DNA from: Dehalococcoidia bacterium
GTDB taxonomy: Bacteria; Chloroflexota; Dehalococcoidia; Lucifugimonadales; JAGWBF01
Reading direction: 5' to 3'
DNA length: 64,000 nucleotides
Assembly: GCA_965237875.1 (NCBI GenBank)
Contig: CBDEGP010000001.1
Coordinates: forward strand, 1,051,355 to 1,115,354
Shown here: piece after piece, positions 1,326-32,303 of the stretch
Numbering within the stretch: the stretch's first letter is position 1
How the letters are laid out: each line of letters opens with the position of its first letter
Program-made: the position numbers and the translations under genes
The notes under the pieces: model-generated
Seen by the model: the letters and a program-made list of their open reading frames with translations, nothing else
Databases searched by the model: none
Told to the model about the DNA's origin: nothing

Positions 1326-2687
1326 TCAGCCGTACTTCCAGCGAGTTCCCTGAGAGGTGTCTTCCAGCATGACCCCCAGTTGAGTCAGACGGTCTCGTAT
1401 GGAGTCGGCCATGTTGTATTGCTTCTCCGCCCGCAACTCTGTGCGGACCTGAAGCAGTAGGTCCACGAAGGGGGCCACGTCATTTTCGCCCGCCGACTTG
1501 GGTTTACGAAAGGTAAGCCCAAGCGCTCCGCCCAACTCCCTCAAGCATGCTTGGGCGCCCTCCACGTCGGAGCCTGATTCCCTGGCCCTGTTTATTTCGC
1601 GGGCCAGATCGAACAGGACGGCCAAAGCTTGCGGAGTGTTCAAGTCCGCCTCCATGGCCTCGATGAAGCGGCCCTTCAGGGGCAATGGGTCAAGGATATC
1701 GCCGCCGGTCCCGGCTCCGGGTTCGAGGGCGGCCCTGAGTCGTTCGGCCGCCCGTTCGTTGGCTGTCACACTTTCTTCAGTGTAGTTGACAGGGCGCCGG
1801 TATGATGAACTCAGGAAGGTGATGCGTATGGCGTCCGGTGAGTGCATCTTGAGTCCATCCTCCAGAGAAACCAGGTTCCCCAGAGATTTGCTCATCTTGT
1901 CGTCGCCCATCTGAAGCAGCCCGTTATGCACCCAAAACCTGGCGAAGGGCCTGACCCCGGTATAGGACTCACTCTGGGCGGCCTCGTTCTCATGGTGAGG
2001 GAAAATCAGGTCCTGGCCCCCTCCATGAATGTCGATAGTCTCTCCGAGGTACTCCATCGACATGGCGGTGCATTCGATGTGCCAACCCGGCCGTCCCGGT
2101 CCCCACGGGCTTTCCCACGAAGGTTCTCCCGGCTTGGCCCCCTTCCAGAGGGCAAAGTCCATGGGGTCTTCCTTTCCTTCACCGGGCTCGACTCTGGCGC
2201 CGGACAGCATTCCGTCCAAGCTGCGGTGACTCAGAGAGCCGTAACCCTCCGACTTGGCGACCCGGAAATACACGTCACCAGTGGCTGCATAGGCGTAGTC
2301 CTTGTCAATCAGGGACCCGATGATTTCGATCATCCGGGGTATCTCTCTCGTGGCTCGCGGGTATACGTTGGCCCGTTGGACGTTGAGGGCGTCCATGCTG
2401 TTCATGAAGTCCTGGATGTGGATTTCAACCAGTTCTTCAAAGTCGATTCCCTCTTTTTCCGACCTCTGTATGATCTTATCGTCAATGTCCGTGAAGTTCT
2501 GGACGTGCTCCACCGCGTATCCCTTGTATTCAAGATACCGGCGCAGCGTGTCGAAGATGACGTAGCTCATGGCGTGTCCCATGTGGGCCGGGGCGTAGGG
2601 GGTGATCCCGCAGACGTACATCTTGACCGTGTCGCCCGCCGGTGAAAACTCTTGCTCCATGCCGCTCTGGGTGTTGAAGAGCTTCAC
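1326..2687 (-). CDS. cysS: cysteine--tRNA ligase
   Basis: ORF 1326..2921. It has a HIGH-type motif (PYAPAHMGHA) and KMSKS (DDKMSKSLGN). I trimmed the start to GTG 2687, which has GGAGGA 7 nt upstream and overlaps the ispF stop as GTGA. The upstream 78 codons lie inside ispF in another frame. Confidence 0.93.
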   Translation of the reverse strand: MKLFNTQSGMEQEFSPAGDTVKMYVCGITPYAPAHMGHAMSYVIFDTLRRYLEYKGYAVEHVQNFTDIDDKIIQRSEKEGIDFEELVEIHIQDFMNSMDALNVQRANVYPRATREIPRMIEIIGSLIDKDYAYAATGDVYFRVAKSEGYGSLSHRSLDGMLSGARVEPGEGKEDPMDFALWKGAKPGEPSWESPWGPGRPGWHIECTAMSMEYLGETIDIHGGGQDLIFPHHENEAAQSESYTGVRPFARFWVHNGLLQMGDDKMSKSLGNLVSLEDGLKMHSPDAIRITFLSSSYRRPVNYTEESVTANERAAERLRAALEPGAGTGGDILDPLPLKGRFIEAMEADLNTPQALAVLFDLAREINRARESGSDVEGAQACLRELGGALGLTFRKPKSAGENDVAPFVDLLLQVRTELRAEKQYNMADSIRDRLTQLGVMLEDTSQGTRWKYG

Positions 2688-3193
2688 CGCGCTTCCTCCG
2701 AGGGCGGAGGGTCCGCCTCTTCCAGAAGGGCCACTGCGTAGGCCGCCATTCCCTCCTCCCTTCCGACAAAGCCAAGATGGTCCGTGGTGGTGGGCTTTAT
2801 GCTCACGTCGGTCAAAGGGATAGACAGGGAACCGCTGATTCTGGCGCTCATTTCGGAAACAAGAGGCCCCAGCCTGGGCCTCTGAGCCAGTATTGTAGCA
2901 TCCACGTTGACGATGCGCCAACCGGCCCGCCGGACAAGCTCGGCCGTCTGGGAAAGAAGGGTCAGGGACGAGACGCCTTTCAACGATTCATCGCCGGACG
3001 GAAAGTGGGTCCCTTTGTCCCCAAGGGCGGCGGCGCCAAGAAGAGCGTCCATTATGGCGTGCGCCAAGACGTCTCCATCGCTGTGGCCTGAAAGCCCCTT
3101 GTCGAAGGGTGCGTAAACCCCGCCAAGCACCAGGTCTCGCCCCTCCACGAGCGGATGGGCGTCGAAACCGACCCCGACCCTAGAGCGGGCCAT
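2684..3193 (-). CDS. ispF: 2-C-methyl-D-erythritol 2,4-cyclodiphosphate synthase
   Basis: 169 aa with the GVGFDAHPL and GHSDGDVLAHA motifs. It overlaps ispD by 14 nt. Confidence 0.95.
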   Translation of the reverse strand: MARSRVGVGFDAHPLVEGRDLVLGGVYAPFDKGLSGHSDGDVLAHAIMDALLGAAALGDKGTHFPSGDESLKGVSSLTLLSQTAELVRRAGWRIVNVDATILAQRPRLGPLVSEMSARISGSLSIPLTDVSIKPTTTDHLGFVGREEGMAAYAVALLEEADPPPSEEAR

Positions 3194-3926
3194 TGGCGCT
3201 GCGCCGGGCGTGGCCTGCCCGTAAGAATGTTTCGGCTACGGCCATGTCTTCCGGGGTCGTAACCTTCAGGTTTTCATAGGAGCCCATGAAAACTTTCACA
3301 GCGCCCCCCATACGCTCCACCAAGGCCGCGTCGTCGGTGACGGTGACGCCGGGCGGACAGGAGTCGTGGGCTTTAATCAGCAAGCCCCAGTCGAAGACCT
3401 GGGGCGTTTGGACCATCCATAGGCTCTCGCGGGGAGGCGTATTCTCAACGAACCGGCCTAGCGAGACTGTCTTTATGGTGTCCTTGGCTGGGACCGCCGC
3501 TATAGCCGCCCCCGTCTCCTTAACGGCCTCCAGCGCCCGTTCCATCATGTCGGGAGCGACACAGGGCCTGGCGCCGTCGTGGACTGCGACCCATTGGCAT
3601 CCGGACCTGTCGGCGTTTTCCAATCCATTTCGCACCGAGTCCTGACGGCGGGCGCCGCCCTTGCATACATGGTCAGGGGTGAGCTTTGACCAACCCATGT
3701 CCCTCGTCATGGCCCTGCCGGCTTCCAGGGCGCTTTCGGACAAGACCAGGGTTATGGAGCCGACGCATGGCATTTCCTGGAATGCGTTGATGGTGTGGGC
3801 AATGAGAGGGATGCCCATGATCGGAGTGAAAATCTTGTCAACGCCGGACATGCGCCTGCTCTCACCGGCGGCCGCAAGTATGACGGCAACGGCGCCGTCG
3901 GAAAGTTGTTCCCGGTCGGCGGCCAA
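3180..3926 (-). CDS. ispD: 2-C-methyl-D-erythritol 4-phosphate cytidylyltransferase
   Basis: 248 aa with the VILAAAGESRRM nucleotide-binding motif. TTG start. Its position immediately upstream of ispF matches many monoderms. Confidence 0.92.
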   Translation of the reverse strand: MAADREQLSDGAVAVILAAAGESRRMSGVDKIFTPIMGIPLIAHTINAFQEMPCVGSITLVLSESALEAGRAMTRDMGWSKLTPDHVCKGGARRQDSVRNGLENADRSGCQWVAVHDGARPCVAPDMMERALEAVKETGAAIAAVPAKDTIKTVSLGRFVENTPPRESLWMVQTPQVFDWGLLIKAHDSCPPGVTVTDDAALVERMGGAVKVFMGSYENLKVTTPEDMAVAETFLRAGHARRSANGPL

Positions 3927-5031: not shown

Positions 5032-5850
5032 TCAAGTCGATGCGCCCACGGTCACGGGCGTCCCGACTCCCGCCTTCAGCTCCTCAGCGGCGCTGCCGTT
5101 CTTGACCGCCACTTCCAGGTAACCGGCGCTGCCTATCAAGGCCGCCAAGCGGCCGCCGTGGGCATAGTACAGTGAGAGCCTGTCTATGACTCTGCCGCAT
5201 ACCTCGACGCGGACTTGGCGCCAACCGGCCAGGTCCTTTTCGCGTATGTTGGTCACCATGTTGCCGAACCTGTCCACGTAGACCACTTGTCCCCGCAGCC
5301 CGGCGTCTTGTTTGAGAGGACCGGGGAACGGGAGCCGTATGATTTCGGCAACCTCCGGCCCCAGGTCATCGGGAGGGACTCCCAGGGAGAGGTGAGCTGC
5401 AACCGGAGCGAATACGTCTCTGCCGTGGAACGTGGCGCTGACGGGCGTCAGCATGTACTTGGGGTTTGTGATGCGATAGGCTCTCCATCCTTGCGGTAAG
5501 CGATGCTTGCCTGGGGTTTCTATTTCGGAGTTCTCGCCCGCCGCCAGGCTGAACATGCCGTTGTCCGGTCCCACGAAATATCCAGCGGGTCCGGACAGGG
5601 CCAGGGCGTCCCGTGAGGAGCCGACGCCCGGGTCCACGACCCCGACGTGAATGGCGTCCTTGGGAAAGAATTTGACGCTTGAGCCCAACACGAAGGCGCC
5701 TTGCCGGACGTCCTGGGGTGAGACCTGGTGGGAAATGTCTACAACGGACGCCGCCGGGTTGATCCCATAAATCACACCCTTCATAACGCCAACGTAGTTG
5801 TCGGACATCCCGAAATCGGTGGTGAATGTGATGAGGCCGGAAGACCCCAC
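5032..5850 (-). CDS. SAM hydroxide adenosyltransferase-like protein (DUF62, chlorinase/fluorinase family)
   Basis: 272 aa. The N-terminus ITFTTDFGMSDNYVGVMKGVI is typical of the family. GTG start with GGAGGA 5 nt upstream. Confidence 0.85.
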   Translation of the reverse strand: MGSSGLITFTTDFGMSDNYVGVMKGVIYGINPAASVVDISHQVSPQDVRQGAFVLGSSVKFFPKDAIHVGVVDPGVGSSRDALALSGPAGYFVGPDNGMFSLAAGENSEIETPGKHRLPQGWRAYRITNPKYMLTPVSATFHGRDVFAPVAAHLSLGVPPDDLGPEVAEIIRLPFPGPLKQDAGLRGQVVYVDRFGNMVTNIREKDLAGWRQVRVEVCGRVIDRLSLYYAHGGRLAALIGSAGYLEVAVKNGSAAEELKAGVGTPVTVGAST

Positions 5851-5865
5851 GCTGTCCTCCGAAGT

Positions 5866-6075
5866 CTAGGCGAAACGGACGCTGATGATGGACATTATCA
5901 GAAAAACCACCGCCAGGACGATGGTGAACTGGAACAGGGTCTTCTCCAGCCCGCGCCTGGTGCGAAAGGTGGACTGGGCGTTCCCAAAGAACCCCGACCC
6001 GCTTTCACGGACCTGCATGAGTATGACTCCCACGAGAATGACGGACACCAGGACTTGAGCGAGTTCAAGAGCCAA
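5866..6075 (-). CDS. secG: preprotein translocase subunit SecG
   Basis: 69 aa. Two hydrophobic helices flank LMQVRESGSGFFG (the Gly-rich SecG loop). TTG start. Confidence 0.8.
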   Translation of the reverse strand: MALELAQVLVSVILVGVILMQVRESGSGFFGNAQSTFRTRRGLEKTLFQFTIVLAVVFLIMSIISVRFA

Positions 6076-6081
6076 TTCGAA

Positions 6082-7599
6082 TCACACCCGTTCCGATTTT
6101 ATTGCTTTCAGCTTAGCGTCTACCAGAGAGGCGACCAGGTCGGGCTTGCTCTGCCCTCTCGTAGCCTTCATCACCTGGCCGACCAGGTATTTTGCGGCGT
6201 TCTCTTTGCCTTTCAGGTAGTCGCCCACGGCCTGTGGGCTGTTCTTGACGGCTTCTTCCACGGCCGCATCCAGCGCCGACGAATCACTAATCTGGACGTA
6301 GCCGCGCTGCTTGACGACGGCGCCTGGGCTTGCGCCTGTGTTGAAAGCCTCCTCCAGCACGGTTTTGGCCAGGCTGGAGCTCAAGGCCCCGTCGTCGATC
6401 AGTTCCATGAGCTCGCGCATCCGCTCCGGCGGGAACCTGGACTCGGAAATGTCCACCCCGTCCAGGTTGAGCAGCCTCCCCAACTCGACCAGAATCCAGT
6501 TGCACAGACCCTTGGCCCTGGAGCGGAGTCCCTCTCCGGTCAATGGGCCGGCAGCCAGGGCCGCTTCGAAGTAATCTGCGGTCGCCCTTGAGGCGGTCAG
6601 GAGCCCAGCGTCGTATTCCGACAGGCCGAACTCGTCCATGAACCTGCTGCGCCTGAGTGCGGGCAGCTCGGGCAGAGAGGACTCCAGCGATTCAATCCAC
6701 GAGGCGTCAAGCGACAGCGGAGGAAGGTCCGGCTCCGGGAAATACCGGTAGTCGTGGGCTTGCTCTTTGCTCCGCTGGGATACGGTAATCTCCCGCCCCT
6801 CGACCCAGCCTCGGGTCTCCTGTGTGACCCTGGCGCCGTCGTGGAGGACTTGAACCTGCCGCTCAGTCTCGTACTTGAGGGCGTTGTAGACGGCCCTGAA
6901 GCTGTTCATGTTCTTGACTTCGACTTTTTGGCCCAGCTCTGTCGCGCCTACGGGACGGACGCTGATGTTGGCGTCGCACCGGAAGTTGCCGTCCTGCATG
7001 TTTCCCGTGGTTACGCCAAGGTACTGGAGTATGGAATGGATGCTTGTCAGGTAGCTGCGCGCTTCCTCGGGCGTCCGCATGTCGGGCTCGCTTACTATCT
7101 CCATCAGGGGAACGCCGGAGCGGTTCACGTCCACCAGGCTATACGCCTCACCCGAACTGTCGCGCAGGTGGATGAGCTTGGCGACGTCCTCTTCCAGGTG
7201 GACTCTGGTTATACCGACCCTGGTCGTTTTCCCGGCGGCTTCCAGCCCGGCGGCTTCCAGGTCGAGAAAGCCTCCGACGGCTATGGGCATGTCATACTGG
7301 GATATCTGGTAGCCCTTCATAAGGTCGGGATAGGGATAATTCTTACGGTCGAACTTGGTGTATCGAGAAACAGTGCAGTTGAGGGCCAGGCCGGTCATCA
7401 TCGTCAACTCCAGGGCGCGCTTATTGATGACGGGCAACGTTCCCGGCGCTCCCAGGCATACCGGGCACACCAGCGTGTTGGGTCCAGCGGCCTGGTAGTC
7501 AGCCCTGCATGAGCAGAACATCTTGCTCTGAGTGAGGAGCTGTACATGGACCTCTAGACCTATGACGGTCTCGTAGTCTGTGGTTGTGGATGCGGTCAT
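6082..7599 (-). CDS. gatB: Asp-tRNA(Asn)/Glu-tRNA(Gln) amidotransferase subunit B
   Basis: VIGLEVHVQLLTQSKMFCSC N-terminus and a C-terminal GatB/YqeY-type tail. I prefer ATG 7599 to the TTG 7620 used by the ORF track. Confidence 0.93.
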   Translation of the reverse strand: MTASTTTDYETVIGLEVHVQLLTQSKMFCSCRADYQAAGPNTLVCPVCLGAPGTLPVINKRALELTMMTGLALNCTVSRYTKFDRKNYPYPDLMKGYQISQYDMPIAVGGFLDLEAAGLEAAGKTTRVGITRVHLEEDVAKLIHLRDSSGEAYSLVDVNRSGVPLMEIVSEPDMRTPEEARSYLTSIHSILQYLGVTTGNMQDGNFRCDANISVRPVGATELGQKVEVKNMNSFRAVYNALKYETERQVQVLHDGARVTQETRGWVEGREITVSQRSKEQAHDYRYFPEPDLPPLSLDASWIESLESSLPELPALRRSRFMDEFGLSEYDAGLLTASRATADYFEAALAAGPLTGEGLRSRAKGLCNWILVELGRLLNLDGVDISESRFPPERMRELMELIDDGALSSSLAKTVLEEAFNTGASPGAVVKQRGYVQISDSSALDAAVEEAVKNSPQAVGDYLKGKENAAKYLVGQVMKATRGQSKPDLVASLVDAKLKAIKSERV

Positions 7600-7670
7600 G
7601 AGTCTAAGCCAGTATAACAATTGGGTGTTGGGGCTTACAATTCCTCAGCCTTACCATTTTGGGCCTTAGC

Positions 7671-7705
7671 GTGTTGGGGCCGTCTTGAGTGTTGGGCCGT
7701 CTTGA
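7671..7705 (+). repeat. tandem repeat GTGTTGGG(G)CCGTCTTGA x 2
   Basis: An 18-nt and a 17-nt copy that differ by one G. More TTGGG motifs lie nearby, in the pcm/gatB spacer. Confidence 0.85.
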
Positions 7706-7720
7706 CTATTGGGCAATGAG

Positions 7721-8395
7721 TCACCGGTTGTCCTGAGGGCCGGCGTCCAGGCGATTGGGATGCCAGGCTTCATTGCCCACCAGCGGCACGAAGCGGCACG
7801 CCCCAAGAACGCGCACGTTGTACCCCTCTCCGGTCCTGTCCACCTTCATCAGAGTCTGTTCGTCCAGGTTCCCGATGGGTATGACCATGCGGCCTCCCAA
7901 AGAGAGCTGAGAAATGAGGGAATGAGGCAGTTTGGGCGCGCCGGCGGACACTATGATGGCGTCGAACGGGGCCTTGTCAGGGCAGCCCAGTTCCGCGGAA
8001 GCCAGCCCGACCTCCAGATTGGCATACCCCAAGGCGTCCAGTCGTTCTCTGGCTTGACTCTCCAGGTCAGGCATGATTTCCACGGACAGGACCTTCCCCC
8101 TCGGCGCCATCTCGGCCAGAATGGCGGCTTCATACCCGCTTCCCGTGCCCAATTCCATGATCGACTCGGTTCCCCGCAAGTCCAAGAGGCTAACCATCAT
8201 GGCAACGATGTAGGGTTGGGAGATGGTCTGCCCCGATCCTATGGGCAAGGGGATGTCTGCATAGGCCAGATGCCGGGTTGCGTCAGGCACAAACATCTCA
8301 CGCGAGACCTTGTACATGGCGTCGACCACTTTGTCGTCGCGCAGCTCCCTGCGGAGCTTTTCCAGCAGTCTGTTCTTATCGCGTTCCAGGTCCAC
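7721..8395 (-). CDS. pcm: protein-L-isoaspartate O-methyltransferase
   Basis: GQTISQPYIVAMM and the ELGTGSGYEAA SAM-binding motifs. The start is uncertain. GTG 8395 has GGGAGG upstream and gives a typical ~224 aa; the ORF extends to 8509. Confidence 0.85.
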   Translation of the reverse strand: MDLERDKNRLLEKLRRELRDDKVVDAMYKVSREMFVPDATRHLAYADIPLPIGSGQTISQPYIVAMMVSLLDLRGTESIMELGTGSGYEAAILAEMAPRGKVLSVEIMPDLESQARERLDALGYANLEVGLASAELGCPDKAPFDAIIVSAGAPKLPHSLISQLSLGGRMVIPIGNLDEQTLMKVDRTGEGYNVRVLGACRFVPLVGNEAWHPNRLDAGPQDNR

Positions 8396-8936: not shown

Positions 8937-9968
8937 ATGCCGGAAATGGACTTGGCGGACCGGAAGTTGCTTAACATAATCCAGTCGGGCTTCCCACTGG
9001 CGGAGAAACCGTACCAGGAGATAGGAAGCCGTCTGGACATAAGCGAGGAAGAGGTCCTCGAGCGTCTGGAAGGACTCAGACAACAGAACGTGGTGCGTCA
9101 AATCAGCGCCATCTTCGACACCCGGCGATTGGGTTACAAGACCAGCCTTATCGCAATGGCTTTCGACGAGGATAAACTCACTGCAGGCGCCTTGAAGATC
9201 AACGAGCACCCCGGAGTCAGCCACAACTACGCGCGGGAGGGGTCGTACTACAACCTCTGGTTCACGTTGGCAGTGCCTCCCGGAGAAGTTGTGGAGGATG
9301 CGGCCCGCGTAATGGCCCGTGAAACGGGAGCGGTGTCCATGAGAAACATGCCCACTATCCGGTTCTTCAAGATAGGCGTCAATTTTGACATGGTCAAAGA
9401 GAAGGGCGCCGCCTATCAGTATTTCAGCCCTGACGGGTACAAAGCCGGTCAGTCCGATTCCAAGCCCCAACAGGTCAGCGCTGACTGGAACAAGCCGGTC
9501 CCCTTGAGTGACTACGACGTCCGGTGCATCCGGGAGCTTCAGGAAGACCTTCCGATGGCTTCCGGCCCTTTCGACGGGATGGCGAAGCGGCTTGGCGTGT
9601 CTGTCCCCGGCCTCTTCAAGATAGCGGATGAATTCGTGGAACGGGGCATAATGCGCAGGTACAGCGCCGTGCTCTACCACAGGAAGGCTGGATTCCAGGC
9701 CAACGGCATGGGTGTATGGAATGTCCCTACGGAGCGGTCCGAGGAAGTGGGAATGATCATGGCCTCGAACCCCGCCGTCACCCACTGCTACGAGAGGCCC
9801 ACGTTCCCCGACTGGCCCTATACCCACTTTTCCATGATACATGCCACCTCAAAGGATGCGTGCGAGGACATCGCCGGGGAAATATCCGCGTCCACCGGGA
9901 TCACGGACTACCTGATGCTCTACAGCACCCGGGAGTACAAGAAGACCCGGGTGCGTTATTTCGTATAG
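8937..9968 (+). CDS. fused AhbA/AhbB-like (NirD/L-like) siroheme decarboxylase
   Basis: 343 aa built from two tandem Lrp/AsnC-like halves (LLNIIQSGFPLAEKPYQEI... and IRELQEDLPMASGPFDGMA...). It is clustered with sirC-like, hemC, cobA-hemD and hemB. Confidence 0.8.
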   Translation: MPEMDLADRKLLNIIQSGFPLAEKPYQEIGSRLDISEEEVLERLEGLRQQNVVRQISAIFDTRRLGYKTSLIAMAFDEDKLTAGALKINEHPGVSHNYAREGSYYNLWFTLAVPPGEVVEDAARVMARETGAVSMRNMPTIRFFKIGVNFDMVKEKGAAYQYFSPDGYKAGQSDSKPQQVSADWNKPVPLSDYDVRCIRELQEDLPMASGPFDGMAKRLGVSVPGLFKIADEFVERGIMRRYSAVLYHRKAGFQANGMGVWNVPTERSEEVGMIMASNPAVTHCYERPTFPDWPYTHFSMIHATSKDACEDIAGEISASTGITDYLMLYSTREYKKTRVRYFV

Positions 9969-14345: not shown

Positions 14346-14825
14346 ATGTTGAAAAACCTGTTCTCAAGAGTTCACCGGGTGTTCAAGGTCAGCGAGGCCC
14401 ATGCCCATTGCGACATCCCCTGCGGCATCTACGATCCTATCTCCGCCAAGATTGCGGCCCAGACCGTTCTCAAGATGGTGGCGCGGATCAACGCCCTCGC
14501 GGCGCCCGACGCAGCCTCAGCGGCGTCCCATGCCAACACGCTGAGCCGCTACATCACCGTCAAAGAGGACCACGCCGACCTGTGCAAGAAGGAGTTGGAC
14601 ATCCTCTGGCACGACTACTTTAGGCCAGACCACCTGGAGACGTACCCGGACCTCCACACCACCTTCTGGAACGCCAACAAGCTGGCCGGACGCAACAAGC
14701 AGAACGTCGATGAGGGCGCGGCCAGGGAACTTATAGCCACCGTCGACCAGATTGCAGAGATATTCTGGGCGACGAAGAACGTCGCCTATAAGGACGAGGT
14801 GGCGGACGTCCGGTACGGGACCTAA
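14346..14825 (+). CDS. sodN: nickel-containing superoxide dismutase precursor
   Basis: The nickel-hook HCDIPCGIYDP follows directly after a 20-aa leader MLKNLFSRVHRVFKVSEAHA. AGGAGG RBS. Confidence 0.93.
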   Translation: MLKNLFSRVHRVFKVSEAHAHCDIPCGIYDPISAKIAAQTVLKMVARINALAAPDAASAASHANTLSRYITVKEDHADLCKKELDILWHDYFRPDHLETYPDLHTTFWNANKLAGRNKQNVDEGAARELIATVDQIAEIFWATKNVAYKDEVADVRYGT

Positions 14826-19448: not shown

Positions 19449-20618
19449 ATGAAGGATAAAGTAGAAGTATTCTGGTTCTCTGAACAGCCCTATGGTCACG
19501 TGACCAACGAAGACCTGGAGCCATACCCCTCAGGACGTCTCGGGTTCCCCAACACCCACTTCGATCCCAACAAGGCCCACGTGCTCTACAACCAGTACCA
19601 CGAACAATATGCTCTGGCCGATGAGGTGGGCTTCGACGGAATCATGTCCAACGAGCACCACGCTTCCTACTGGTGCATGAAGCCGTCGGTCAACATGGAC
19701 GCCGCGGTCATCTCCAAACTGACCAAGAATGTCAGGATAGCCATACTTGGGAACGTCATCGCGATTAACGATCCCGTCAAGATGGCCGAAGAGATAGCCA
19801 TGTTGGACTGCTTCTCCGACGGCAGGATCATCTCCGGGTTCGTGCGTGGAACGGCCGTGGAATCCCTGCAGGGAGGCATCGACCCCACGGAGAACTTCGA
19901 GCGGTTCCAGGAAGCCCACGACCTGATCATCAAGTGCTGGACGCAACCCGGACCCTTCCGCCATGAGGGGAAGTATTTCCAATACAGGGTGGTGAACCCC
20001 TGGGTGCTGCCGGTCCAGAAGCCTCGCCCTGAGATATGGTTCCCCGGCACGGGCAGCCCTGAAAGCGTCGTTTGGGCCGCACGGCATCAGCACCCCTACA
20101 TGAACCTGGGCGCGCTGATCGGCATGACCGAATACTTGAAGAACGTCTACATCGAGACGGCCCACGACATAGGCTTCCAGCCGGGGCCGGAGCATTTCGG
20201 GTACTTGCTGAGGTGCTTGGTCGCCGACACCGACGAGAAAGCCATTGAACTGGGCAAGTGGTTCATGTGGACCGAGGACCACAGGCAGAGGGGACCGAGA
20301 GAGCACAACGACCCGCCCGGCTACCAGAGCCGTGAAGCGGTGAACGTCAAAAGCCAGAGGCCCACAATCGGAACGGGCACCTTTGGGCGCAGGATGACGT
20401 ATGACCAGCTCCGCGACGTCAACAACATCATCGTAGGGAACCCGGACACGGTCATCGAGAAGCTGACGCAGATCATCGAACACCTGGACCCGGGTTACAT
20501 CCACATCTACGGCAACGAGGGTCTGATGCCCCATGAAGACGTGATGCGGTCGGTGGAGCTATTTGGCAAAGAGGTCGTCCCGGCGCTCCACGAGATACAG
20601 CTCAAGCCCTACGAATAA
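19449..20618 (+). CDS. LLM-class (bacterial luciferase-like) flavin-dependent oxidoreductase
   Basis: 389 aa with a GIMSNEHH motif. It is a close paralog of 31116..32303. Confidence 0.85.
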   Translation: MKDKVEVFWFSEQPYGHVTNEDLEPYPSGRLGFPNTHFDPNKAHVLYNQYHEQYALADEVGFDGIMSNEHHASYWCMKPSVNMDAAVISKLTKNVRIAILGNVIAINDPVKMAEEIAMLDCFSDGRIISGFVRGTAVESLQGGIDPTENFERFQEAHDLIIKCWTQPGPFRHEGKYFQYRVVNPWVLPVQKPRPEIWFPGTGSPESVVWAARHQHPYMNLGALIGMTEYLKNVYIETAHDIGFQPGPEHFGYLLRCLVADTDEKAIELGKWFMWTEDHRQRGPREHNDPPGYQSREAVNVKSQRPTIGTGTFGRRMTYDQLRDVNNIIVGNPDTVIEKLTQIIEHLDPGYIHIYGNEGLMPHEDVMRSVELFGKEVVPALHEIQLKPYE

Positions 20619-20652
20619 TTCCCTTAACCGGAACCGGAAAAAGATGAGAAGG

Positions 20653-20673
20653 CCCCGCAGGTCTAATGCGGGG
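20653..20673. terminator. bidirectional intrinsic terminator hairpin
   Basis: CCCCGCA-ggtctaa-TGCGGGG is flanked by an A-run upstream and a T-rich tract downstream. It sits between the convergent LLM and MetE-like genes. Confidence 0.6.
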
Positions 20674-20687
20674 TCTTTCATTTCGCG

Positions 20688-22217
20688 TCAGTATAGATGC
20701 CGGCGGCGGAGTTCGGAGGCGGCGTCGGCGATAGCCGTCAGCTTTGCCGCGGCGGTCTGGGCGGAAGCCACCGGATTGTCCGCAAAGGTGGCGAAACCGC
20801 AGTCGGGATTCAGCAGGACGCGGTCGGGGCCGAAAATGGAAATGGCCCGTTCCGCCCTTTCAATGATCTCTGCTGTGGGCTCGACGGAATTCAGCTTGGG
20901 GTTGACGACTCCCACGCCAACGCGCCGGTCGGCGGGAAGGCCGGATACGGCTTCCATGTCCCCGGCCCGCGGCGTGCAAAACTCTAGAAGATAGTTTCCC
21001 ACGTTCAACGAGGAGAGGGTGTCAACCAACGGCCCATAGCTTCCCGCAAGGGCCACTCCTTCGTCCTTGGACCAGTTGCCCCGGCAGACGTGCAAGGCCA
21101 GCCGCTCCATAGGCAGCCCTTTCACGACCTGATTGATCAGGTCTCCTGCGAAGGCCAACTCCTCTTCAGTGTCCATCTTCTCCGACAGGGCGCCGCACAT
21201 GAAGGACCTTCCGCCGGTGGGACTTCCGAACACCACCTCCGAAAGGACCGGCTCGTCGAATTGCACGAGAGCCGCCCCCTTGGCCAGAAGGAAGTGGAGC
21301 TCTTCGCGCAGTACGCGGACCACGTCACGGGCAAGCTCATCGCGGGCCCCGTAAGGACGCTCGGTGAGGCAGTCGAGCCACATGGTGCGGGTGAGCAGGT
21401 ATGGCCCCGGCAGAGCAACCTTCACGAGCCTGTCCGAGCAGGTCCGAACAAACTCGAACTCATGGACGGCCAGCGGACGGCTCCTTCCAAGCTTTCCAAA
21501 GACCACGGGATGCCGGACTTCCGATGCCGGAACGTCCAGGGCCCGGAGTTCACGTTCGAACTTCTCCGAGTCGTCGACCATGGCAGCCAAATCGCTGAGG
21601 GGTATGAGTTGGCAGTTGTCCAGCAAGCCTCCCACGAAGCTGGCGTAGCTATCCCGCCGCTGCTCACCGTCCGTAAGAACATCGACGCCTGCGCGAAGCT
21701 GGGCGTCGATGGAAAGCCGCACGGCGTCATCAGCCGTGGCTTGAAACTCCGCCTCATCCAGCCTGCCTTCAAGACGTTCGTGGACCGCCTGCAGCATCCA
21801 ACGGGGTCTCGGCCAACTGCCAATCCCGAACACGGACAACGGCTGTATTGCCGGGGCGGGCGCCGGCTGAGGAAGCGTTTCCGGGACTGTCACGTCAACC
21901 CGGAACTGTGCTCCAATGGACGCCATAGGCGCCGCGGCCGGCGCCGTTCTGCTGTTCGAGAAGGGGCCTTTGCAAACGAGGTAGCTGCGGCGGTCTCCGG
22001 TTCTAGTCCACGAGACCAGCTCGTTGTCAGTCATACGGCACCAAGCAGGCAACTCGACTTCGACGGTCGAGTCCGTTGACAGTATCTCCAGCAGCCCGCC
22101 GCGGTCCAGCGGGTCGATGTGGCGGCGAATCAGGAGCAACAGTCCGCCGCCGCAGTCGAGGTCGCCGCCGTCGAACCTGACGTCGGGTTGGTGGGCGTGT
22201 TTTTCGACCTGGTCCAT
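20688..22217 (-). CDS. fusion protein: N-terminal TusA-like domain + MetE-type (Meth_synt_2) Zn-dependent thiol alkyltransferase catalytic domain
   Basis: The N-terminus GGDLDCGGGLLLLIRR...LPAWCRMT parallels the stand-alone TusA-like gene. The C-terminal ~340 aa carries LALHVCRGNW, EFCTPRAG and LLNPDCGF (MetE zinc-ligand motifs). I took ATG 22217 as the start because the longer ORF overlaps the DsrE-like gene. The start is uncertain. Confidence 0.78.
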   Translation of the reverse strand: MDQVEKHAHQPDVRFDGGDLDCGGGLLLLIRRHIDPLDRGGLLEILSTDSTVEVELPAWCRMTDNELVSWTRTGDRRSYLVCKGPFSNSRTAPAAAPMASIGAQFRVDVTVPETLPQPAPAPAIQPLSVFGIGSWPRPRWMLQAVHERLEGRLDEAEFQATADDAVRLSIDAQLRAGVDVLTDGEQRRDSYASFVGGLLDNCQLIPLSDLAAMVDDSEKFERELRALDVPASEVRHPVVFGKLGRSRPLAVHEFEFVRTCSDRLVKVALPGPYLLTRTMWLDCLTERPYGARDELARDVVRVLREELHFLLAKGAALVQFDEPVLSEVVFGSPTGGRSFMCGALSEKMDTEEELAFAGDLINQVVKGLPMERLALHVCRGNWSKDEGVALAGSYGPLVDTLSSLNVGNYLLEFCTPRAGDMEAVSGLPADRRVGVGVVNPKLNSVEPTAEIIERAERAISIFGPDRVLLNPDCGFATFADNPVASAQTAAAKLTAIADAASELRRRHLY

Positions 22218-22257
22218 CAGCAGGGCCTTCGAGGAATTGGCGCCCAAGGGCTGCCCG

Positions 22258-22620
22258 CTAGTAGGTGACGCAAGGGCTGCCGTCGGAGAGGAACTCCACC
22301 AGCTTTGCGCCGCCGACAATCATGGCGCCGTCAACCAGGTTGTTCTCGTCGAGGCCGCGTTTCTTGAGGCAGGGCGCACAGACATAAATGGTTCCGCCTC
22401 CGCCGGCGAAGTTGTGCATTAAATCCTTCAGGGCCATGAAGCCCTCTTCGTGTATGTCGTCGGCGTAGCCGTTCTCGGCAAGGCGGACCCCTTCAGCGCT
22501 CAGGAAGACAACAGTCTCCTTCTCCGATCCCAGCGCGGCGTTTGCCACGACAAAGCCCACCGTCGCTCTGTCGGGGTCGTTCTTGGCGTTGGTGAGACTT
22601 ACGCAGAATTTTCCGGCCAT
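22258..22620 (-). CDS. DsrE/DsrF-like sulfur-relay family protein
   Basis: 120 aa. VVFLSAEGVRL...GGGTIYVCAPCLKKRGL is the typical DsrE-fold pattern with conserved Cys. GGGAGG RBS. Confidence 0.8.
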   Translation of the reverse strand: MAGKFCVSLTNAKNDPDRATVGFVVANAALGSEKETVVFLSAEGVRLAENGYADDIHEEGFMALKDLMHNFAGGGGTIYVCAPCLKKRGLDENNLVDGAMIVGGAKLVEFLSDGSPCVTY

Positions 22621-22650
22621 GTCGGTTTCCTCCCGGTTGGGGTTATGCGG

Positions 22651-22905
22651 CTATGATGTGTGTCTTTGCTCGATCCAGTAATCAGGGTGGTCGGCCCACA
22701 GCAAACGGCGGCCCGTCATCCGGCACCACGCCGGCAGGTCTTGGGGGGCGCCGAGGTCACGGGCAGTCAGTCTAAGGACCTCGCTGGGCTTGAGCTTCTG
22801 CATGCGTTGTCTGAGGAGGACGATGACCTCGCCGCAGCCCATGTCTCCCGCGTCCCATTCGTCGGCTACGGCGATTTCCTCCGATTGCTTTCGCTCATCC
22901 GGCAT
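22651..22905 (-). CDS. TusA-like (SirA family) small sulfur-carrier protein, CG variant of the CPxP motif
   Basis: 84 aa. DMGCGEVIVLLRQ and DLPAWCRMT correspond to TusA LRCPEPVMMVR and DIPGFC. Confidence 0.72.
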   Translation of the reverse strand: MPDERKQSEEIAVADEWDAGDMGCGEVIVLLRQRMQKLKPSEVLRLTARDLGAPQDLPAWCRMTGRRLLWADHPDYWIEQRHTS

Positions 22906-22969
22906 TGCTTATTCCACTGCCGCCGGGCGCCTCCCTGAAAGGCATCTCCCTAGCGAAGTATAAGAGATG

Positions 22970-22987
22970 TTAATATCACACATTAAC
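22970..22987. promoter_or_regulatory. inverted repeat GTTAAT-n6-ATTAAC (candidate operator)
   Basis: Perfect 6-bp arms. It is overlapped by the direct repeat TGTTAATATC (22969..22978) / TGTCAATATC (22991..23000). It lies in an AT-rich island of the tusA-like/amidohydrolase divergent spacer. Confidence 0.4.
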
Positions 22988-23027
22988 CACTGTCAATATC
23001 TGAGCCCAAATGCCGCGCCGCGCCTTT

Positions 23028-23036
23028 TGCTATAAT
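23028..23036 (+). promoter_or_regulatory. extended -10 element TGCTATAAT
   Basis: A perfect TGnTATAAT 29 nt upstream of ATG 23065, in an AT-rich divergent spacer. Confidence 0.45.
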
Positions 23037-23064
23037 CTTCCTCGTGTAAGGACCGGAGGCAAAG

Positions 23065-24201
23065 ATGTCCAAGAACGGCTATAGGGTTATCGACAGTGAC
23101 CTTCATTTGATGGAGCCTCCCGATCTATTCGAGAGATACATGGACACATCATTCAGAGACAAGGCTCCCAAACCCACGGCAAGGGGCGCCGGCCACTATG
23201 CCAGATGGACGCTGGAGGGCAGCCCCATACCTCCCTGGGGCCATGACGACCACGTATGGAAGGTGAACGAACCTATGGACAGGCGCGCCAAGGAGGTGAT
23301 GTCGGAGGGATGGGCCACCGGGTTTGACGCCTCAACGTCGTTAAGCGCAATGGACAAAGAGGGCATCGACGTAGCCGTCATGTTCCGCACTACGGCCAGC
23401 ATGTTCGTGTCCAAGGACTCCCTGGACGCCAAGCTGTCCCTCGAGATATGCAAGGCCTTCAACGATTGGGTGTCGGAGTATTGCAAGGACGACCCCGAAA
23501 GGATGAAACCCACGTCCATCGTTCCTCAGCAAGACCCTGAACTGGCGGCGCAGGAGGCCCGGCGAAGCGTCGAGAAGTTGGGCTCGGTAGGAGTGGTGAT
23601 GCTTCCCATGCCCGTGTCCGGGCGCCATCCCCACGACCCCGAGTTCGACGTCCTGTGGGCGGAGGCGGAGAGGCTGGGAGTCCCCATATGCTTCCACGGC
23701 ACCTCAGGCGCCGTTTCTCACGATTACGTCGGGGGCAGGTTCGCAGGCCACCCCGCCTATAGGTCCATACTCCACTCAACAGTCTTTCCCATCGAGCTTA
23801 TGATGGCCATGTCCAGCATGATCATGGGCGGAGTGATGGAGCGGTTCCCCAAGCTGAAGGTGGCTTTTCTGGAGGGCAACTGCTCCTGGCTCCCGTGGTG
23901 GCTGTATCGTTTGGACGATCAATGGGAGAAGTTCGGCCCCGGAGAAGAGGTGGACCTGTCCCTCAGACCCACCGACTATTTCCTGCGCCAGTGCTGGATT
24001 TCCGTGGACGCCGACGAGGTCCTCAGCGAAGACGTGGTGAGCAGGCTTGGCGACGACAACATCGTGTTCTCCACCGACTACCCTCATCCCGACTCGGCTT
24101 ATCCCCACGCTACGGAAGAGCTGCTGTCCATCGACGGGTTGTCGTCGGCGACCAAGAAGAAGATTCTCTGGGACAACTGCGCCAAGCTGTATGGCATCTA
24201 A
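23065..24201 (+). CDS. Amidohydro_2 family metal-dependent hydrolase/decarboxylase
   Basis: VIDSDLHLMEP and VFSTDYPHPDS motifs. 378 aa. Confidence 0.85.
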   Translation: MSKNGYRVIDSDLHLMEPPDLFERYMDTSFRDKAPKPTARGAGHYARWTLEGSPIPPWGHDDHVWKVNEPMDRRAKEVMSEGWATGFDASTSLSAMDKEGIDVAVMFRTTASMFVSKDSLDAKLSLEICKAFNDWVSEYCKDDPERMKPTSIVPQQDPELAAQEARRSVEKLGSVGVVMLPMPVSGRHPHDPEFDVLWAEAERLGVPICFHGTSGAVSHDYVGGRFAGHPAYRSILHSTVFPIELMMAMSSMIMGGVMERFPKLKVAFLEGNCSWLPWWLYRLDDQWEKFGPGEEVDLSLRPTDYFLRQCWISVDADEVLSEDVVSRLGDDNIVFSTDYPHPDSAYPHATEELLSIDGLSSATKKKILWDNCAKLYGI

Positions 24202-31084: not shown

Positions 31085-31115
31085 TTGATGACAATAGACT
31101 AGCGGGAGGTTGGCC

Positions 31116-32303
31116 ATGGTAGAGCAACTTGCACGGCCCAAGGACAAGGTGGAAGTCTACTGGTTCTCGGAGCAGCCCAACGGATACATCACCGACAACG
31201 ACCTGGAGAAGTACCCTTCAGGCCGCCTGGGATTCCCCAACTCCCACTTCGACCGGCACAAGGCCCACGTTCTCTATTCCCAGTACCACGACCAGTACGC
31301 CTATGCTGACGAGGTGGACTTCGACGGCATCATGAGCAACGAGCACCACTCGGCCTACTGGTGCATGAAGCCCGCAGTGAACCTGGACGCGGCGGTGATC
31401 TCCAAGGTGACCAGGAAGGTCAAAATCGCCATCCTGGGCAACGTCATAGCCATCAACGACCCCGTCAGGATGGCCGAAGAGATTGCCATGCTGGACTGCT
31501 ACTCCGGCGGTCGAATCATCTCCGGGTTCGTGAGGGGCGGCGCCGTGGAAAGTCTTCAAGGGGGCATCGACCCTTCCGAGAACCGGGAGCGGTTCGAGGA
31601 GGCCCACGACCTCATCATCAAGTGTTGGACAGAGCCGGGACCTTTCCGGTTCGAGGGCAAGCACTATCAGTACAGGGTGGTCAACCCGTGGGTCCTGCCA
31701 ATGCAGGAGCCGCACCCGGACATCTGGTTCCCTGGCACCGGCAGCCCTGAGAGCGTGGTCTGGGCGGCCAGCCACGGCCATCCCTACATGAACCTGGGCG
31801 CTCTGCTGGAGATCACCCAATGGCTAAAGGACATTTACATCGACACGGCTCGCGAAGCCGGATACAAGCCTGGGCCTGAGCACTTCGGCTACCTGCTCAA
31901 GGTGTTCTGCGCAGACACTGACGAAAAGGCCATCGAGATGGGGCGACGGTTCCTGTGGACTGAAAACCACCGCCAGCGTGGACCCAGGGAGCATGTGGAC
32001 CCGCCCGGTTATCAGTCGAGGGGAGCGCTGAAGGTCAAGGCGCAGCGGCCCACCGCGGGAGGTTTCGTTGGGAAGAAACTCAACTACGACGAGTTGCGGG
32101 GACTCAACAACATCATCGTTGGAAGCCCTGATACAGTGGTGTCAAAGCTGACGGAGGTCATCTCGCGCCTCAACCCCGGTTACCTGCACATATACGGCAA
32201 CGAGGGCGACATGCCCCACGAGGACGTGATGCGGTCCATCGAGCTGCTGGGCAGGGAAGTGATTCCCGCTTTGCACGAGATCAAGCTCCAACCCTACGAG
32301 TAG
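31116..32303 (+). CDS. LLM-class flavin-dependent oxidoreductase (paralog of 19449..20618)
   Basis: Collinear with the other LLM along its full length, roughly three quarters identical by eye. ATG 31116 sits 6 nt after GGGAGG. Confidence 0.85.
   Translation: MVEQLARPKDKVEVYWFSEQPNGYITDNDLEKYPSGRLGFPNSHFDRHKAHVLYSQYHDQYAYADEVDFDGIMSNEHHSAYWCMKPAVNLDAAVISKVTRKVKIAILGNVIAINDPVRMAEEIAMLDCYSGGRIISGFVRGGAVESLQGGIDPSENRERFEEAHDLIIKCWTEPGPFRFEGKHYQYRVVNPWVLPMQEPHPDIWFPGTGSPESVVWAASHGHPYMNLGALLEITQWLKDIYIDTAREAGYKPGPEHFGYLLKVFCADTDEKAIEMGRRFLWTENHRQRGPREHVDPPGYQSRGALKVKAQRPTAGGFVGKKLNYDELRGLNNIIVGSPDTVVSKLTEVISRLNPGYLHIYGNEGDMPHEDVMRSIELLGREVIPALHEIKLQPYE

Follow-up and report, generated by a model that had tools for sequence, protein, structure and literature searches.

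The window analyzed here, a 64-kb stretch of the Dehalococcoidia contig CBDEGP010000001.1 to whose positions the coordinates below refer, contains three co-directional open reading frames on the minus strand, which encode a TusA-like protein, a DsrE-like protein, and a fusion of a second TusA-type domain to a MetE-type barrel (hereafter the trio). The intergenic gaps are 30 nucleotides (TusA-DsrE) and 40 nucleotides (DsrE-fusion). An earlier note on this DNA had described the trio as a sulfur-relay module attached to a zinc-dependent thiol alkyltransferase; its observation of a three-gene module is confirmed, as all three open reading frames were found at its coordinates and the fusion has 509 residues when read from its ATG. 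The locus comprises the following features:

22967..22996, minus strand: promoter-like TTGACA-18 nt-TAACAT, ~60 nucleotides upstream of the TusA start (consensus match only)
22651..22905, minus strand: free TusA-like carrier, 84 residues
22258..22620, minus strand: DsrE-like protein, 120 residues
20688..22217, minus strand: TusA::MetE-like fusion, 509 residues, ATG start at 22217
21954..22217, minus strand: N-terminal TusA-fold domain of the fusion, residues 1-88 (from a fold model and paralogy to the free TusA)
21843..21953, minus strand: Pro/Ala-rich linker of the fusion, residues 89-125 (composition read from the sequence)
20688..21842, minus strand: core MetE-type (beta/alpha)8 domain of the fusion, residues 126-509 plus stop
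21183..21221, minus strand: inserted loop of the fusion with Cys341, residues 333-345 (a gap in the alignment to 3RPD)
20653..20673, minus strand: GC-rich hairpin CCCCGCA-7 nt-TGCGGGG, 15 nucleotides past the fusion stop (read from the sequence)

The longest open reading frame of the fusion is 20688..22319, with a TTG start; its homologues all begin at the ATG at 22217. The promoter-like sequence is the sole sigma-70-like match in 20400-23200, where shuffled sequence gives a mean of 0.3 matches, and a GGGAGGA Shine-Dalgarno sequence is found 5' of the DsrE gene. The hairpin sits between convergent genes and may be a terminator; its T-run is offset, and for that reason the terminator scan passed over it.

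The free TusA-like protein scores above the Pfam TusA cut-off (PF01206; 31.8 bits, cut-off 28.6), whereas residues 27-81 of the fusion fall under it (21.4 bits), so that the Pfam check proposed for the two TusA modules bears out the first and not the second. Cys24 of the free protein (22834-22836) aligns with Cys19 of E. coli TusA, the persulfide-carrying residue at the N-terminus of helix 1, and Cys61 (22723-22725) with Cys56 (1DCJ/3LVJ). For conservation we compared 154 distinct fusions, 128 free TusA, and 126 DsrE sequences; Cys24 is conserved in 99% and Cys61 in 100% of the free TusA homologues. In both TusA copies of the window the canonical C-P-x-P is replaced by C-G (DMGCGE, DLDCGG), as the earlier note had seen, and the Gly is kept family-wide. 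Two of the motifs it listed as shared, DMGCG/DLDCG and LPAWCRMT, are present in both copies, while a third, LL[LI]R, is inexact, the free TusA reading VLLR. Neither protein reaches the TusA equivalog of the tRNA 2-thiouridine relay (NF001423; cut-off 78 bits), the free protein scoring 29 bits and the fusion 24. In some Planctomycetota-type loci the free TusA carries a Cys-rich, zinc-ribbon-like N-terminal extension of ~110 residues (C-x-x-C ... C-x-x-C; locus L039 2338-2934, L126 about 6100-6928).

The DsrE-like protein passes the Pfam DsrE threshold, as had been anticipated (PF02635; 54.7 bits, cut-off 22.7). Its motif Cys81-x-Pro83-Cys84, encoded at 22369-22380, is conserved in 100% of the 126 homologues at all three named positions, and in an alignment to the DsrE/DsrF-like structure 3MC3, Cys81 coincides with the cysteine of that protein. 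The protein lies far under the equivalog cut-offs for TusC, TusD, DsrE, and DsrF (e.g., TIGR03010: 16 vs. 94 bits), and no TusB/C, DsrEFH-type paralogous partner, DsrC, or TusE recurs at the loci examined. The two carriers resemble, without matching, those of known sulfur relays, such as TusA-TusBCD of E. coli, TusA-DsrEFH-DsrC of Allochromatium, and the DsrE3A/TusA thiosulfonate carriers of Metallosphaera (PMC4175335): the folds are the same, the active Cys positions align, and a Cys-to-Cys handover of chalcogen between the TusA and DsrE families would be common to both. Unlike those relays, the trio has a single small C-x-P-C DsrE, lacks TusB/C/E or DsrC partners and a tRNA-thiolation, Dsr, or sHdr context, and would have a zinc alkyltransferase as its acceptor.

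Modeled alone with AlphaFold, residues 1-92 of the fusion give a predicted local distance difference test score (pLDDT) of 79.5 (range 73-89) and the order beta-alpha-beta-alpha-beta-beta, a two-layer alpha/beta sandwich. The top three PDB matches of this model are the E. coli TusA structures 3LVJ_C, 1DCJ, and 3LVK, with a template modeling (TM) score of 0.87 and a root-mean-square deviation of 1.5 Å to 3LVJ_C. The domain and the free TusA are paralogues (BLASTP E 2e-6; phmmer also matches), and the carrier cysteines of the domain, Cys22 (22152-22154) and Cys60 (22038-22040), are conserved in 99% and 98% of the fusions, respectively. The TusA fold that the earlier note had assigned to this N-terminus therefore holds. 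The linker that follows contains ..TAPAAAPMAS..LPQPAPAPAIQ.., its columns are variable in the family alignment, and residues 89-102 have a pLDDT below 50. In its Pro/Ala composition it is reminiscent of the swinging-arm linkers found in carrier domains, an analogy that suggests the TusA domain could be carried on such an arm.

The model of the whole fusion has a pLDDT of 79 and a predicted TM score of 0.74. Residues 132-486 pass the threshold for Meth_synt_2 (PF01717; 86.3 bits, cut-off 21), in agreement with the earlier assignment, and the best structural match of the barrel is MesD (3RPD; TM 0.82, 23% identity), with MesD and MetE structures making up the top Foldseek matches (TM up to 0.84, target-normalized). 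The motifs LALHVCRGNW, EFCTPRAG, and LLNPDCGF are present as described, and alignment to MesD 3RPD and Thermotoga maritima MetE places the zinc ligands at H376 (21090-21092), C378 (21084-21086), E412 (20982-20984), and C473 (20799-20801), and the residues of the homocysteine pocket at S134 (21816-21818), E185 (21663-21665), and D321 (21255-21257). In E. coli MetE the zinc ligands are H641/C643/E665/C726 and the homocysteine binders S433/E484/D599 (Price et al., PMC7857596). All seven residues of the fusion are at least 97% conserved among the 154 distinct fusions, and we predict that the barrel has an intact zinc site and homocysteine pocket. The architecture reported in the earlier note, a TusA domain covalently joined to a MetE-type zinc barrel and accompanied by a free TusA and a free DsrE, is accordingly retained.

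As in full-length MetE and epoxyalkane:coenzyme M transferase, the barrel is of the type that activates a thiolate at zinc for alkyl transfer, but unlike the latter the fusion has an acceptor pocket of the homocysteine rather than the coenzyme M type. Unlike full-length MetE, the fusion has no Meth_synt_1 folate domain (13.6 bits, below the cut-off of 27), and its TusA domain occupies the position of the folate-binding N-terminal domain. The full-length MetE equivalogs are likewise far out of reach (TIGR01371, 59 vs. 930 bits; NF003556, 68 vs. 541), the closest NCBIfam methionine-synthase model being NF003317 (156 bits vs. a cut-off of 406). Because it lacks the folate domain, the genome label '5-methyltetrahydropteroyltriglutamate--homocysteine methyltransferase' given to the fusion is almost certainly wrong. 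NCBIfam has no dedicated model for the trio, and none of the three proteins reaches any of its equivalogs.

The core methionine synthases MesA-MesD, of which MesD (PDB 3RPD) partners MesX (Price et al. 2021, PMC7857596), likewise have one MetE catalytic barrel and lack the folate-binding domain. The fusion shares with them the conserved H-C-E-C zinc ligands and Ser/Glu/Asp homocysteine residues, separately encoded partners, and a donor that has yet to be identified. It differs from MesD, to which it is just 23% identical, by the N-terminal TusA domain and by a loop absent from 3RPD, and from the Mes families in general by its partners, TusA and DsrE rather than MesX or a corrinoid protein, and by its selenium-gene neighbors (see below). 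The inserted loop (..GGRSFMCGALS..), which is probably mobile as its pLDDT is low, carries Cys341 (codon 21195-21197), one of three family-specific cysteines (C202, C283, C341) that are at least 97% conserved in the 154 fusions; C341 is conserved in 100%.

Relatives of the fusion number more than 7,000 database proteins, the best 120 of which are all ~500 residues long and 70-88% identical to it; they are encoded in at least 544 stretches of the species-representative genome collection and in 403 metagenome stretches. The hosts span about ten phyla, including Dehalococcoidia, Latescibacterota, Planctomycetota, Verrucomicrobiota, Binatota, Acidobacteriota, Actinomycetota, and Obscuribacterales, and among the proteobacteria Burkholderiales (Paraburkholderia tropica, Burkholderia, Duganella, Massilia) and Paracoccus. 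The nearest relatives of the window's fusion are from Dehalococcoidia (86% identity, same synteny). Full-length fusions are at least 60% identical across phyla, and clustering at 50% leaves a handful of representatives. The family (L001-L163) is unusually uniform, with 60-88% identity even between Chloroflexota and Pseudomonadota, which suggests recent horizontal spread, very strong constraint, or the two combined.

For gene context we examined 161 loci, 81 from genomes (80 from the species-genome scan plus a Paracoccus replicon) and 80 from metagenomes. TusA, DsrE, and the fusion are the only gene set common to nearly every locus with enough flank, so the co-occurrence that the earlier note proposed to look for is recurrent; even a fusion of just 44% identity still has a DsrE gene directly upstream. 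Clustering of 80 loci found no recurrent neighbor besides TusA and DsrE, although no search was aimed at DUF1852 or corrinoid proteins. None of the conserved Cys codons of the trio is replaced by TGA at any of the 161 loci. The author of the earlier note knew of no described system with this architecture, and none was found in the searchable literature or in NCBIfam; the component proteins of the trio belong to known families.

The flanks of these loci (1.21 Mb, mean 7.5 kb per locus) were scanned with E. coli SelD and Paracoccus SelA and SelB as queries, and 13 of the 161 loci contain one of the corresponding genes:

selD: L039, L080, L071, L092, L106, L124, L135, L138
selA: L081, L146
selB: L051, L160, L090

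Assuming that every 4-Mb genome has selA, selB, and selD, at most ~0.9 would be expected in the flanks by chance (P ~2e-11; ~5e-6 with the loci collapsed to 8 independent arrangements). Three additional loci have an adjacent LysR that exceeds the 250-bit cut-off of NF040786, 'selenium metabolism-associated LysR' (L014, 285; L050, 272; L069, 267 bits); a LysR subfamily has been linked to selenium genes by Lin et al. (PMC5322559). Together, the loci with a sel gene or a selenium LysR span at least six family clades at 70% identity. The trio is non-randomly co-localized with selenium genes.

Two arrangements illustrate this association. In Planctomycetota-type loci (L106/L092), a transglutaminase-like gene, TusA, DsrE, the fusion, a gene for a small Cys-rich secreted protein, and selD follow one another on one strand, and selD itself carries an in-frame TGA, coding for selenocysteine, in its N-terminal motif (..CGGUASKLGP..); plain calling of open reading frames truncates the N-terminus of this selD because of that TGA. 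The selD genes with an in-frame TGA are:

L039, about 5440-6465
L080, about 2540-3565
L092
L106

In the large replicons of Paracoccus ferrooxidans and P. versutus the order is SufS < > TusA-DsrE-x-x-fusion-selA-trxB, with a SufS-family desulfurase divergent and upstream of the trio and selA (PF03841, 502 bits) starting 78 nucleotides past the fusion. A few kilobases upstream of the trio are selB and a gene for a UGSC-family selenoprotein with an in-frame TGA (..GLAN-U-GSC..):

L081, 2496-3065, minus strand: UGSC selenoprotein gene
L164, 9498-10289: UGSC selenoprotein gene

The latter gene is annotated in Paracoccus as two 'hypothetical proteins' divided at the selenocysteine codon (..GLAN-TGA-GSCTSW..). 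In P. ferrooxidans, two copies of ISPme2 enclose a region of ~21 kb that includes selB, the UGSC gene, the trio, selA, and trxB.

As it is often located beside genes of the selenocysteine pathway, the module probably handles selenium rather than ordinary sulfur; we consider it somewhat probable that it is selenium-related, and we infer that it belongs to the supply line of the selenophosphate synthetase SelD. The trio has a counterpart in YedF (TIGR03527), a fusion of a TusA/SirA-like and a DsrE-like module with a CGXC pair that is statistically linked to SelD, co-localizes with selD, a selenocysteine lyase, and a selenium-associated LysR, and has a transglutaminase-like enzyme among its STRING partners (Lin et al. 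2015, PMC5322559). The trio likewise combines TusA-type and DsrE-type modules, the latter with a C-x-x-C pair. Unlike in YedF, the modules are separate, C-G stands for C-P-x-P and C-x-P-C for C-G-x-C, and a second TusA is fused to an enzyme; none of the three proteins matches TIGR03527 at E <= 1. The similarity to YedF is functional, and by analogy only. A second parallel is Methanococcus maripaludis, in which selenium starvation induces a TusA/TusD pair ~20-fold, together with the Sdm methyl-selenide-mobilizing methyltransferases (PMC11097638; SdmABC as a methyl-selenide demethylation system, Niess and Klein 2004, cited therein). That response, too, involves TusA-type and DsrE-type proteins and a zinc-type methyltransferase of the UroD/MetE superfamily, three functions that the trio, as judged from its domains, unites in one operon. 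Sdm differs in its corrinoid protein, its coenzyme M acceptor, and its UroD-family enzymes, in genes that are neither fused nor adjacent, and in being restricted to archaea.

The main alternative for the element carried is a sulfur relay, in which sulfane sulfur is coupled to alkyl transfer in ordinary sulfur metabolism and the sel-gene neighbors reflect shared thiol/redox regulation only. In one version, methanethiol or dimethyl disulfide would be salvaged as Cys-S-S-CH3, with the methyl group passing to homocysteine and the persulfide sulfur to assimilation. The TusA and DsrE proteins characterized to date carry sulfur (PMC4175335, PMC11094781). Some flanks of the trio hold sulfatase genes or genes for sulfonate-like or phosphonate-like transport, and its Paracoccus loci adjoin a SufS-type cysteine desulfurase. 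Enzymes of the SufS type, however, are also selenocysteine lyases. The context of an unfused relative (see below) presumably resembles sulfur-scavenging operons, and the absence of a nearby sel gene from the window's own clade is also as a sulfur relay would have it. Against such a relay, no met, cys, Sox, Dsr, sHdr, rhodanese, sulfite reductase, or tRNA-thiolation genes recur in the flanks of the 161 loci, and no S-adenosylmethionine (SAM), T-box, cobalamin, or other riboswitch was detected at Rfam gathering thresholds in the whole window, in 11 loci from genomes, or in 9 from unfused relatives. The role in sulfur or methionine metabolism put forward in the earlier note thus found no support in these 21 loci or in the flanks, in which selenium genes recur instead. 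Given also that the enrichment of selD, selA, selB, and the selenium LysR is far beyond chance and extends over at least six clades, we regard the sulfur relay as unlikely.

A second line of evidence comes from relatives that lack the TusA domain. An exhaustive search identified unfused proteins of 370-397 residues that are 33-49% identical to the fusion and have a small DsrE-like gene with a C-G-I-C motif directly upstream. In a low-GC subfamily of these, 63 of the 118 proteins listed have an in-frame TGA at the codon aligned with Cys341 (..SFY-TGA-GALS..), and the other 55 have Cys at this position (..SFMCAALS..). TGA-type genes include:

L167, 513-1700 (TGA ~1173-1175)
L169, 10001-11188
L172, L174, L175, and L176

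The TGA is retained across 64-100% identity. The Trp codons of the TGA-type gene are all TGG, and on a 73-kb contig with such a gene, called there as pieces of 220 and 162 residues, nine other genes run without an internal stop and TGG serves for 18 of 18 Trp codons; these organisms use the standard genetic code. Gene callers either split the TGA-type gene or render its TGA as Trp. By its alignment and its alternation with Cys, the TGA at position 341 is probably a selenocysteine codon, which would make these proteins a new selenoprotein family; a 2026 review does not list a MetE-like selenoprotein among those of prokaryotes (PMC13188914). The alternation of TGA and Cys indicates that residue 341 is a catalytic nucleophilic or redox residue and ties the family again to selenium-using organisms. 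A selenocysteine insertion sequence (SECIS) element is suggestive at best: the single-sequence fold of the TGA-type gene is no stabler than shuffled sequence (z = +1.35), and the alignment fold contains just a conserved 5-bp hairpin 18 nucleotides downstream of the TGA, with one compensatory pair.

Residue 341 is central to another possible explanation, that the fusion adds a fifth kind to the folate-independent 'core' methionine synthases, with this residue as its catalytic nucleophile. Position 341 would be an encoded selenocysteine in the sister clade, while the Cys forms would bear a persulfide or perselenide that the TusA/DsrE relay has put in place, the perselenide possibly deriving, as a labile cofactor, from SelD-derived selenium. 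Like Co(I) in corrinoid enzymes, such a soft nucleophile could strip a methyl group from a poor donor and pass it to zinc-bound homocysteine. The predicted zinc site and homocysteine pocket, the Cys/TGA alternation, the retention of the DsrE-like partner even in unfused clades, and the position of selD as the commonest sel neighbor (8 loci) all fit this proposal, and MesD, the nearest structure, likewise needs a partner protein and an unidentified methyl donor (PMC7857596). Yet a DsrE-like partner persists in the selenocysteine-containing forms, so that the relay must do more than stand in for selenocysteine; the riboswitch scans gave no link to methionine regulation; and a labile selenium cofactor would not call for the selA/selB neighbors (5 loci). 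Paraburkholderia and other organisms that encode the trio presumably also have MetE or MetH, in which case the trio is not their sole methionine synthase. We therefore consider a fifth core synthase quite unlikely.

Our preferred reading is that the trio relays a chalcogen, probably selenium, and couples this to zinc-dependent methyl transfer to homocysteine, and we put its chances at a little short of even. The element carried is more likely selenium because the neighbors are selD, selA, selB, the selenium LysR, and the UGSC gene and because the sister clade has a probable selenocysteine; homocysteine, rather than relay sulfur as nucleophile, is the likely methyl participant, as acceptor, because its pocket is retained. 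The earlier idea of a relay-borne chalcogen in alkyl transfer thus fits in general, and its proposal that relay sulfur is the nucleophile is unsupported for the same reason. The link to selenium is moderately supported; the chemistry we infer as follows. Methylated selenium, e.g., from dimethyl diselenide, methylseleninate, or methylselenol, would be bound as Cys-S-Se-CH3 on C22 of the TusA arm, on Cys341 of the loop, or on both. The arm would present the methyl-selenide to the barrel, as the N-terminal domain does with methyl-folate in MetE, and the zinc-activated thiolate of homocysteine would take the methyl group to give methionine, leaving a Cys-S-Se(-) perselenide. This could move via C341 or C22, and then the C-x-P-C of DsrE or C24 of TusA, toward SelD, with the DsrE cysteine pair either releasing it as selenide or handing it over to SelD, and the resulting disulfide could be re-reduced, e.g., by the thioredoxin system. 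In some lineages a transglutaminase-like enzyme, a PhnCDE-like importer, or a membrane/periplasmic pair could deliver an external selenium compound. This specific methyl-selenide demethylation we hold to be doubtful. A broader proposal, that the trio and its unfused relatives together form a selenium pathway, is possible but tentative; in it, a MetE-type zinc enzyme would act on a protein-tethered methyl-selenide or with selenocysteine or perselenide at position 341, would yield methionine, and would pass selenium via the TusA/DsrE relay to SelD, and the pathway would include the new MetE-like selenoprotein family.

Several observations weigh against our preferred reading. About 90% of the loci show no sel gene in the available flank, the window's own clade (32 Dehalococcoidia/Latescibacterota loci) has none within ~6 kb, and the 64-kb window contains no SelD homologue. 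A cysteine carrier for sulfur is indistinguishable by sequence from one for selenium, the methyl donors named above are candidate species only, and thiolate attack on a methyl-selenide is chemically demanding, with no characterized corrinoid-free enzymatic precedent. More distant Cys-type unfused relatives adjoin an acyl-CoA-dehydrogenase-like gene, a phosphonate-binding-type protein, and OsmC; these contexts hold no selenium gene, and the selenium reading is not meant to cover these relatives. Finally, the selenium model leaves unexplained the sulfatase genes (C-x-P-x-R motif) that directly flank the trio in two lineages, the Latescibacterota and one Dehalococcoidia clade:

L003-L009 (e.g., L007 4544-5953 and 8477-9955)
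L013, 8222-9703

A role for the trio in sulfatase maturation or sulfate-ester metabolism was considered for these loci and dropped, as the association comes down to some two evolutionary events, in genomes rich in sulfatases, and lacks a chemical rationale.

The same parts could also be read in the opposite direction, as detoxification of selenium (or of tellurium or sulfide), with a carrier perselenide methylated at the zinc site to volatile methylselenol or dimethylselenide. Zinc sites of the MetE family activate soft nucleophiles, and some loci have import/export components and reductase genes. Moreover, multi-cysteine carriers bind selenite-derived selenium (PMC5322559). Detoxification, however, would have no need of the homocysteine residues, whose conservation is at least 97%; the trio has no recurrent SAM methyltransferase or methyl-donor-binding domain alongside it; and the neighbors are genes of selenium utilization (selD, selA, selB), not of resistance. 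We regard detoxification as highly unlikely.

How bacteria acquire selenide and deliver it safely to SelD is unresolved, as free selenide is toxic and the affinity of SelD for it is poor; the selenide carriers proposed so far, YedF, rhodanese, and NifS-like lyases, are candidates only. Under the selenium reading, the trio offers a tractable candidate for this delivery in cultured, genetically accessible bacteria, such as Paracoccus versutus, Paraburkholderia tropica, and strains of Burkholderia, Duganella, and Massilia. If the reading is correct, the MetE superfamily gains a substrate tethered to a carrier protein, a swinging TusA arm in place of the folate domain, and methyl transfer from selenium or sulfur to homocysteine, and bacteria gain a route for scavenging organic or methylated selenium. 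The trio could matter for the environmental turnover of organic selenium, since it is widespread among lineages of soil, fresh water, and the sea, with aerobic Dehalococcoidia, Planctomycetota, Latescibacterota, and Verrucomicrobiota among its hosts.

Apart from the trio, the most frequent ancillary gene encodes an exported transglutaminase-like thiol enzyme with a signal peptide (of the twin-arginine translocation type in Paracoccus) and a conserved Cys/His/Asp triad. It is found directly upstream of or within the trio at 22 of the 80 metagenome loci and about seven genome loci, in several phyla, and is likely a fourth component of the module. Examples are:

L085, 2199-3344
L118, 8458-9564
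L057, 4654-5880
L081, 3469-4575

Other ancillary genes are more restricted. An ATP-binding cassette importer of the PhnD/PhnE/PhnC type lies between DsrE and the fusion in ~17 Burkholderiales loci (e.g., L055 3384-6001); its PhnD-like protein was rejected as a selenate binder, its match to the 'putative selenate' model TIGR04553 being weak (73 vs. 250 bits). A C-x-x-C membrane protein and a 522-residue protein take this position in Paracoccus and three betaproteobacterial loci; the Paracoccus versions, hyp168 (the C-x-x-C membrane protein) and hyp522 (with a hydrophobic, signal-like N-terminus), have no sequence match in Pfam, NCBIfam, or the PDB. Only in L055 (Burkholderia sp. Ac-20365) is the fusion followed by a YdjA-like nitroreductase gene (7605-8315), which we treat as anecdotal; in E. 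coli K-12, ydjA, encoding a minimal nitroreductase, is directly upstream of selD (L083 3966-5677).

Among the unfused relatives, a Cys-type gene on Tissierellia-like contigs has a phosphonate-binding-type protein directly upstream (L177 7168-7989) and no permease or ATPase nearby, and a relative of 597 residues (L168 868-2661) has its MetE-like catalytic domain fused to an NTP_transf_3 nucleotidyltransferase in place of TusA.

In the window itself, the trio is surrounded by genes for a luciferase-like monooxygenase, an amidohydrolase, a flavin mononucleotide dehydrogenase, an alpha/beta hydrolase, and a major facilitator superfamily transporter. These were rejected as parts of the module because their synteny is limited to three close Dehalococcoidia relatives (L001, L011, L064). 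Elsewhere, the window encodes a nickel superoxide dismutase (14346-14825; PF09055, 159 bits), a siroheme-decarboxylase NirDL-like gene (8937-9968) whose adjoining genes look heme-biosynthetic by eye only, and a second luciferase-like monooxygenase (31110-32303), the N-terminus of which closely resembles that of the product of 19449-20618.

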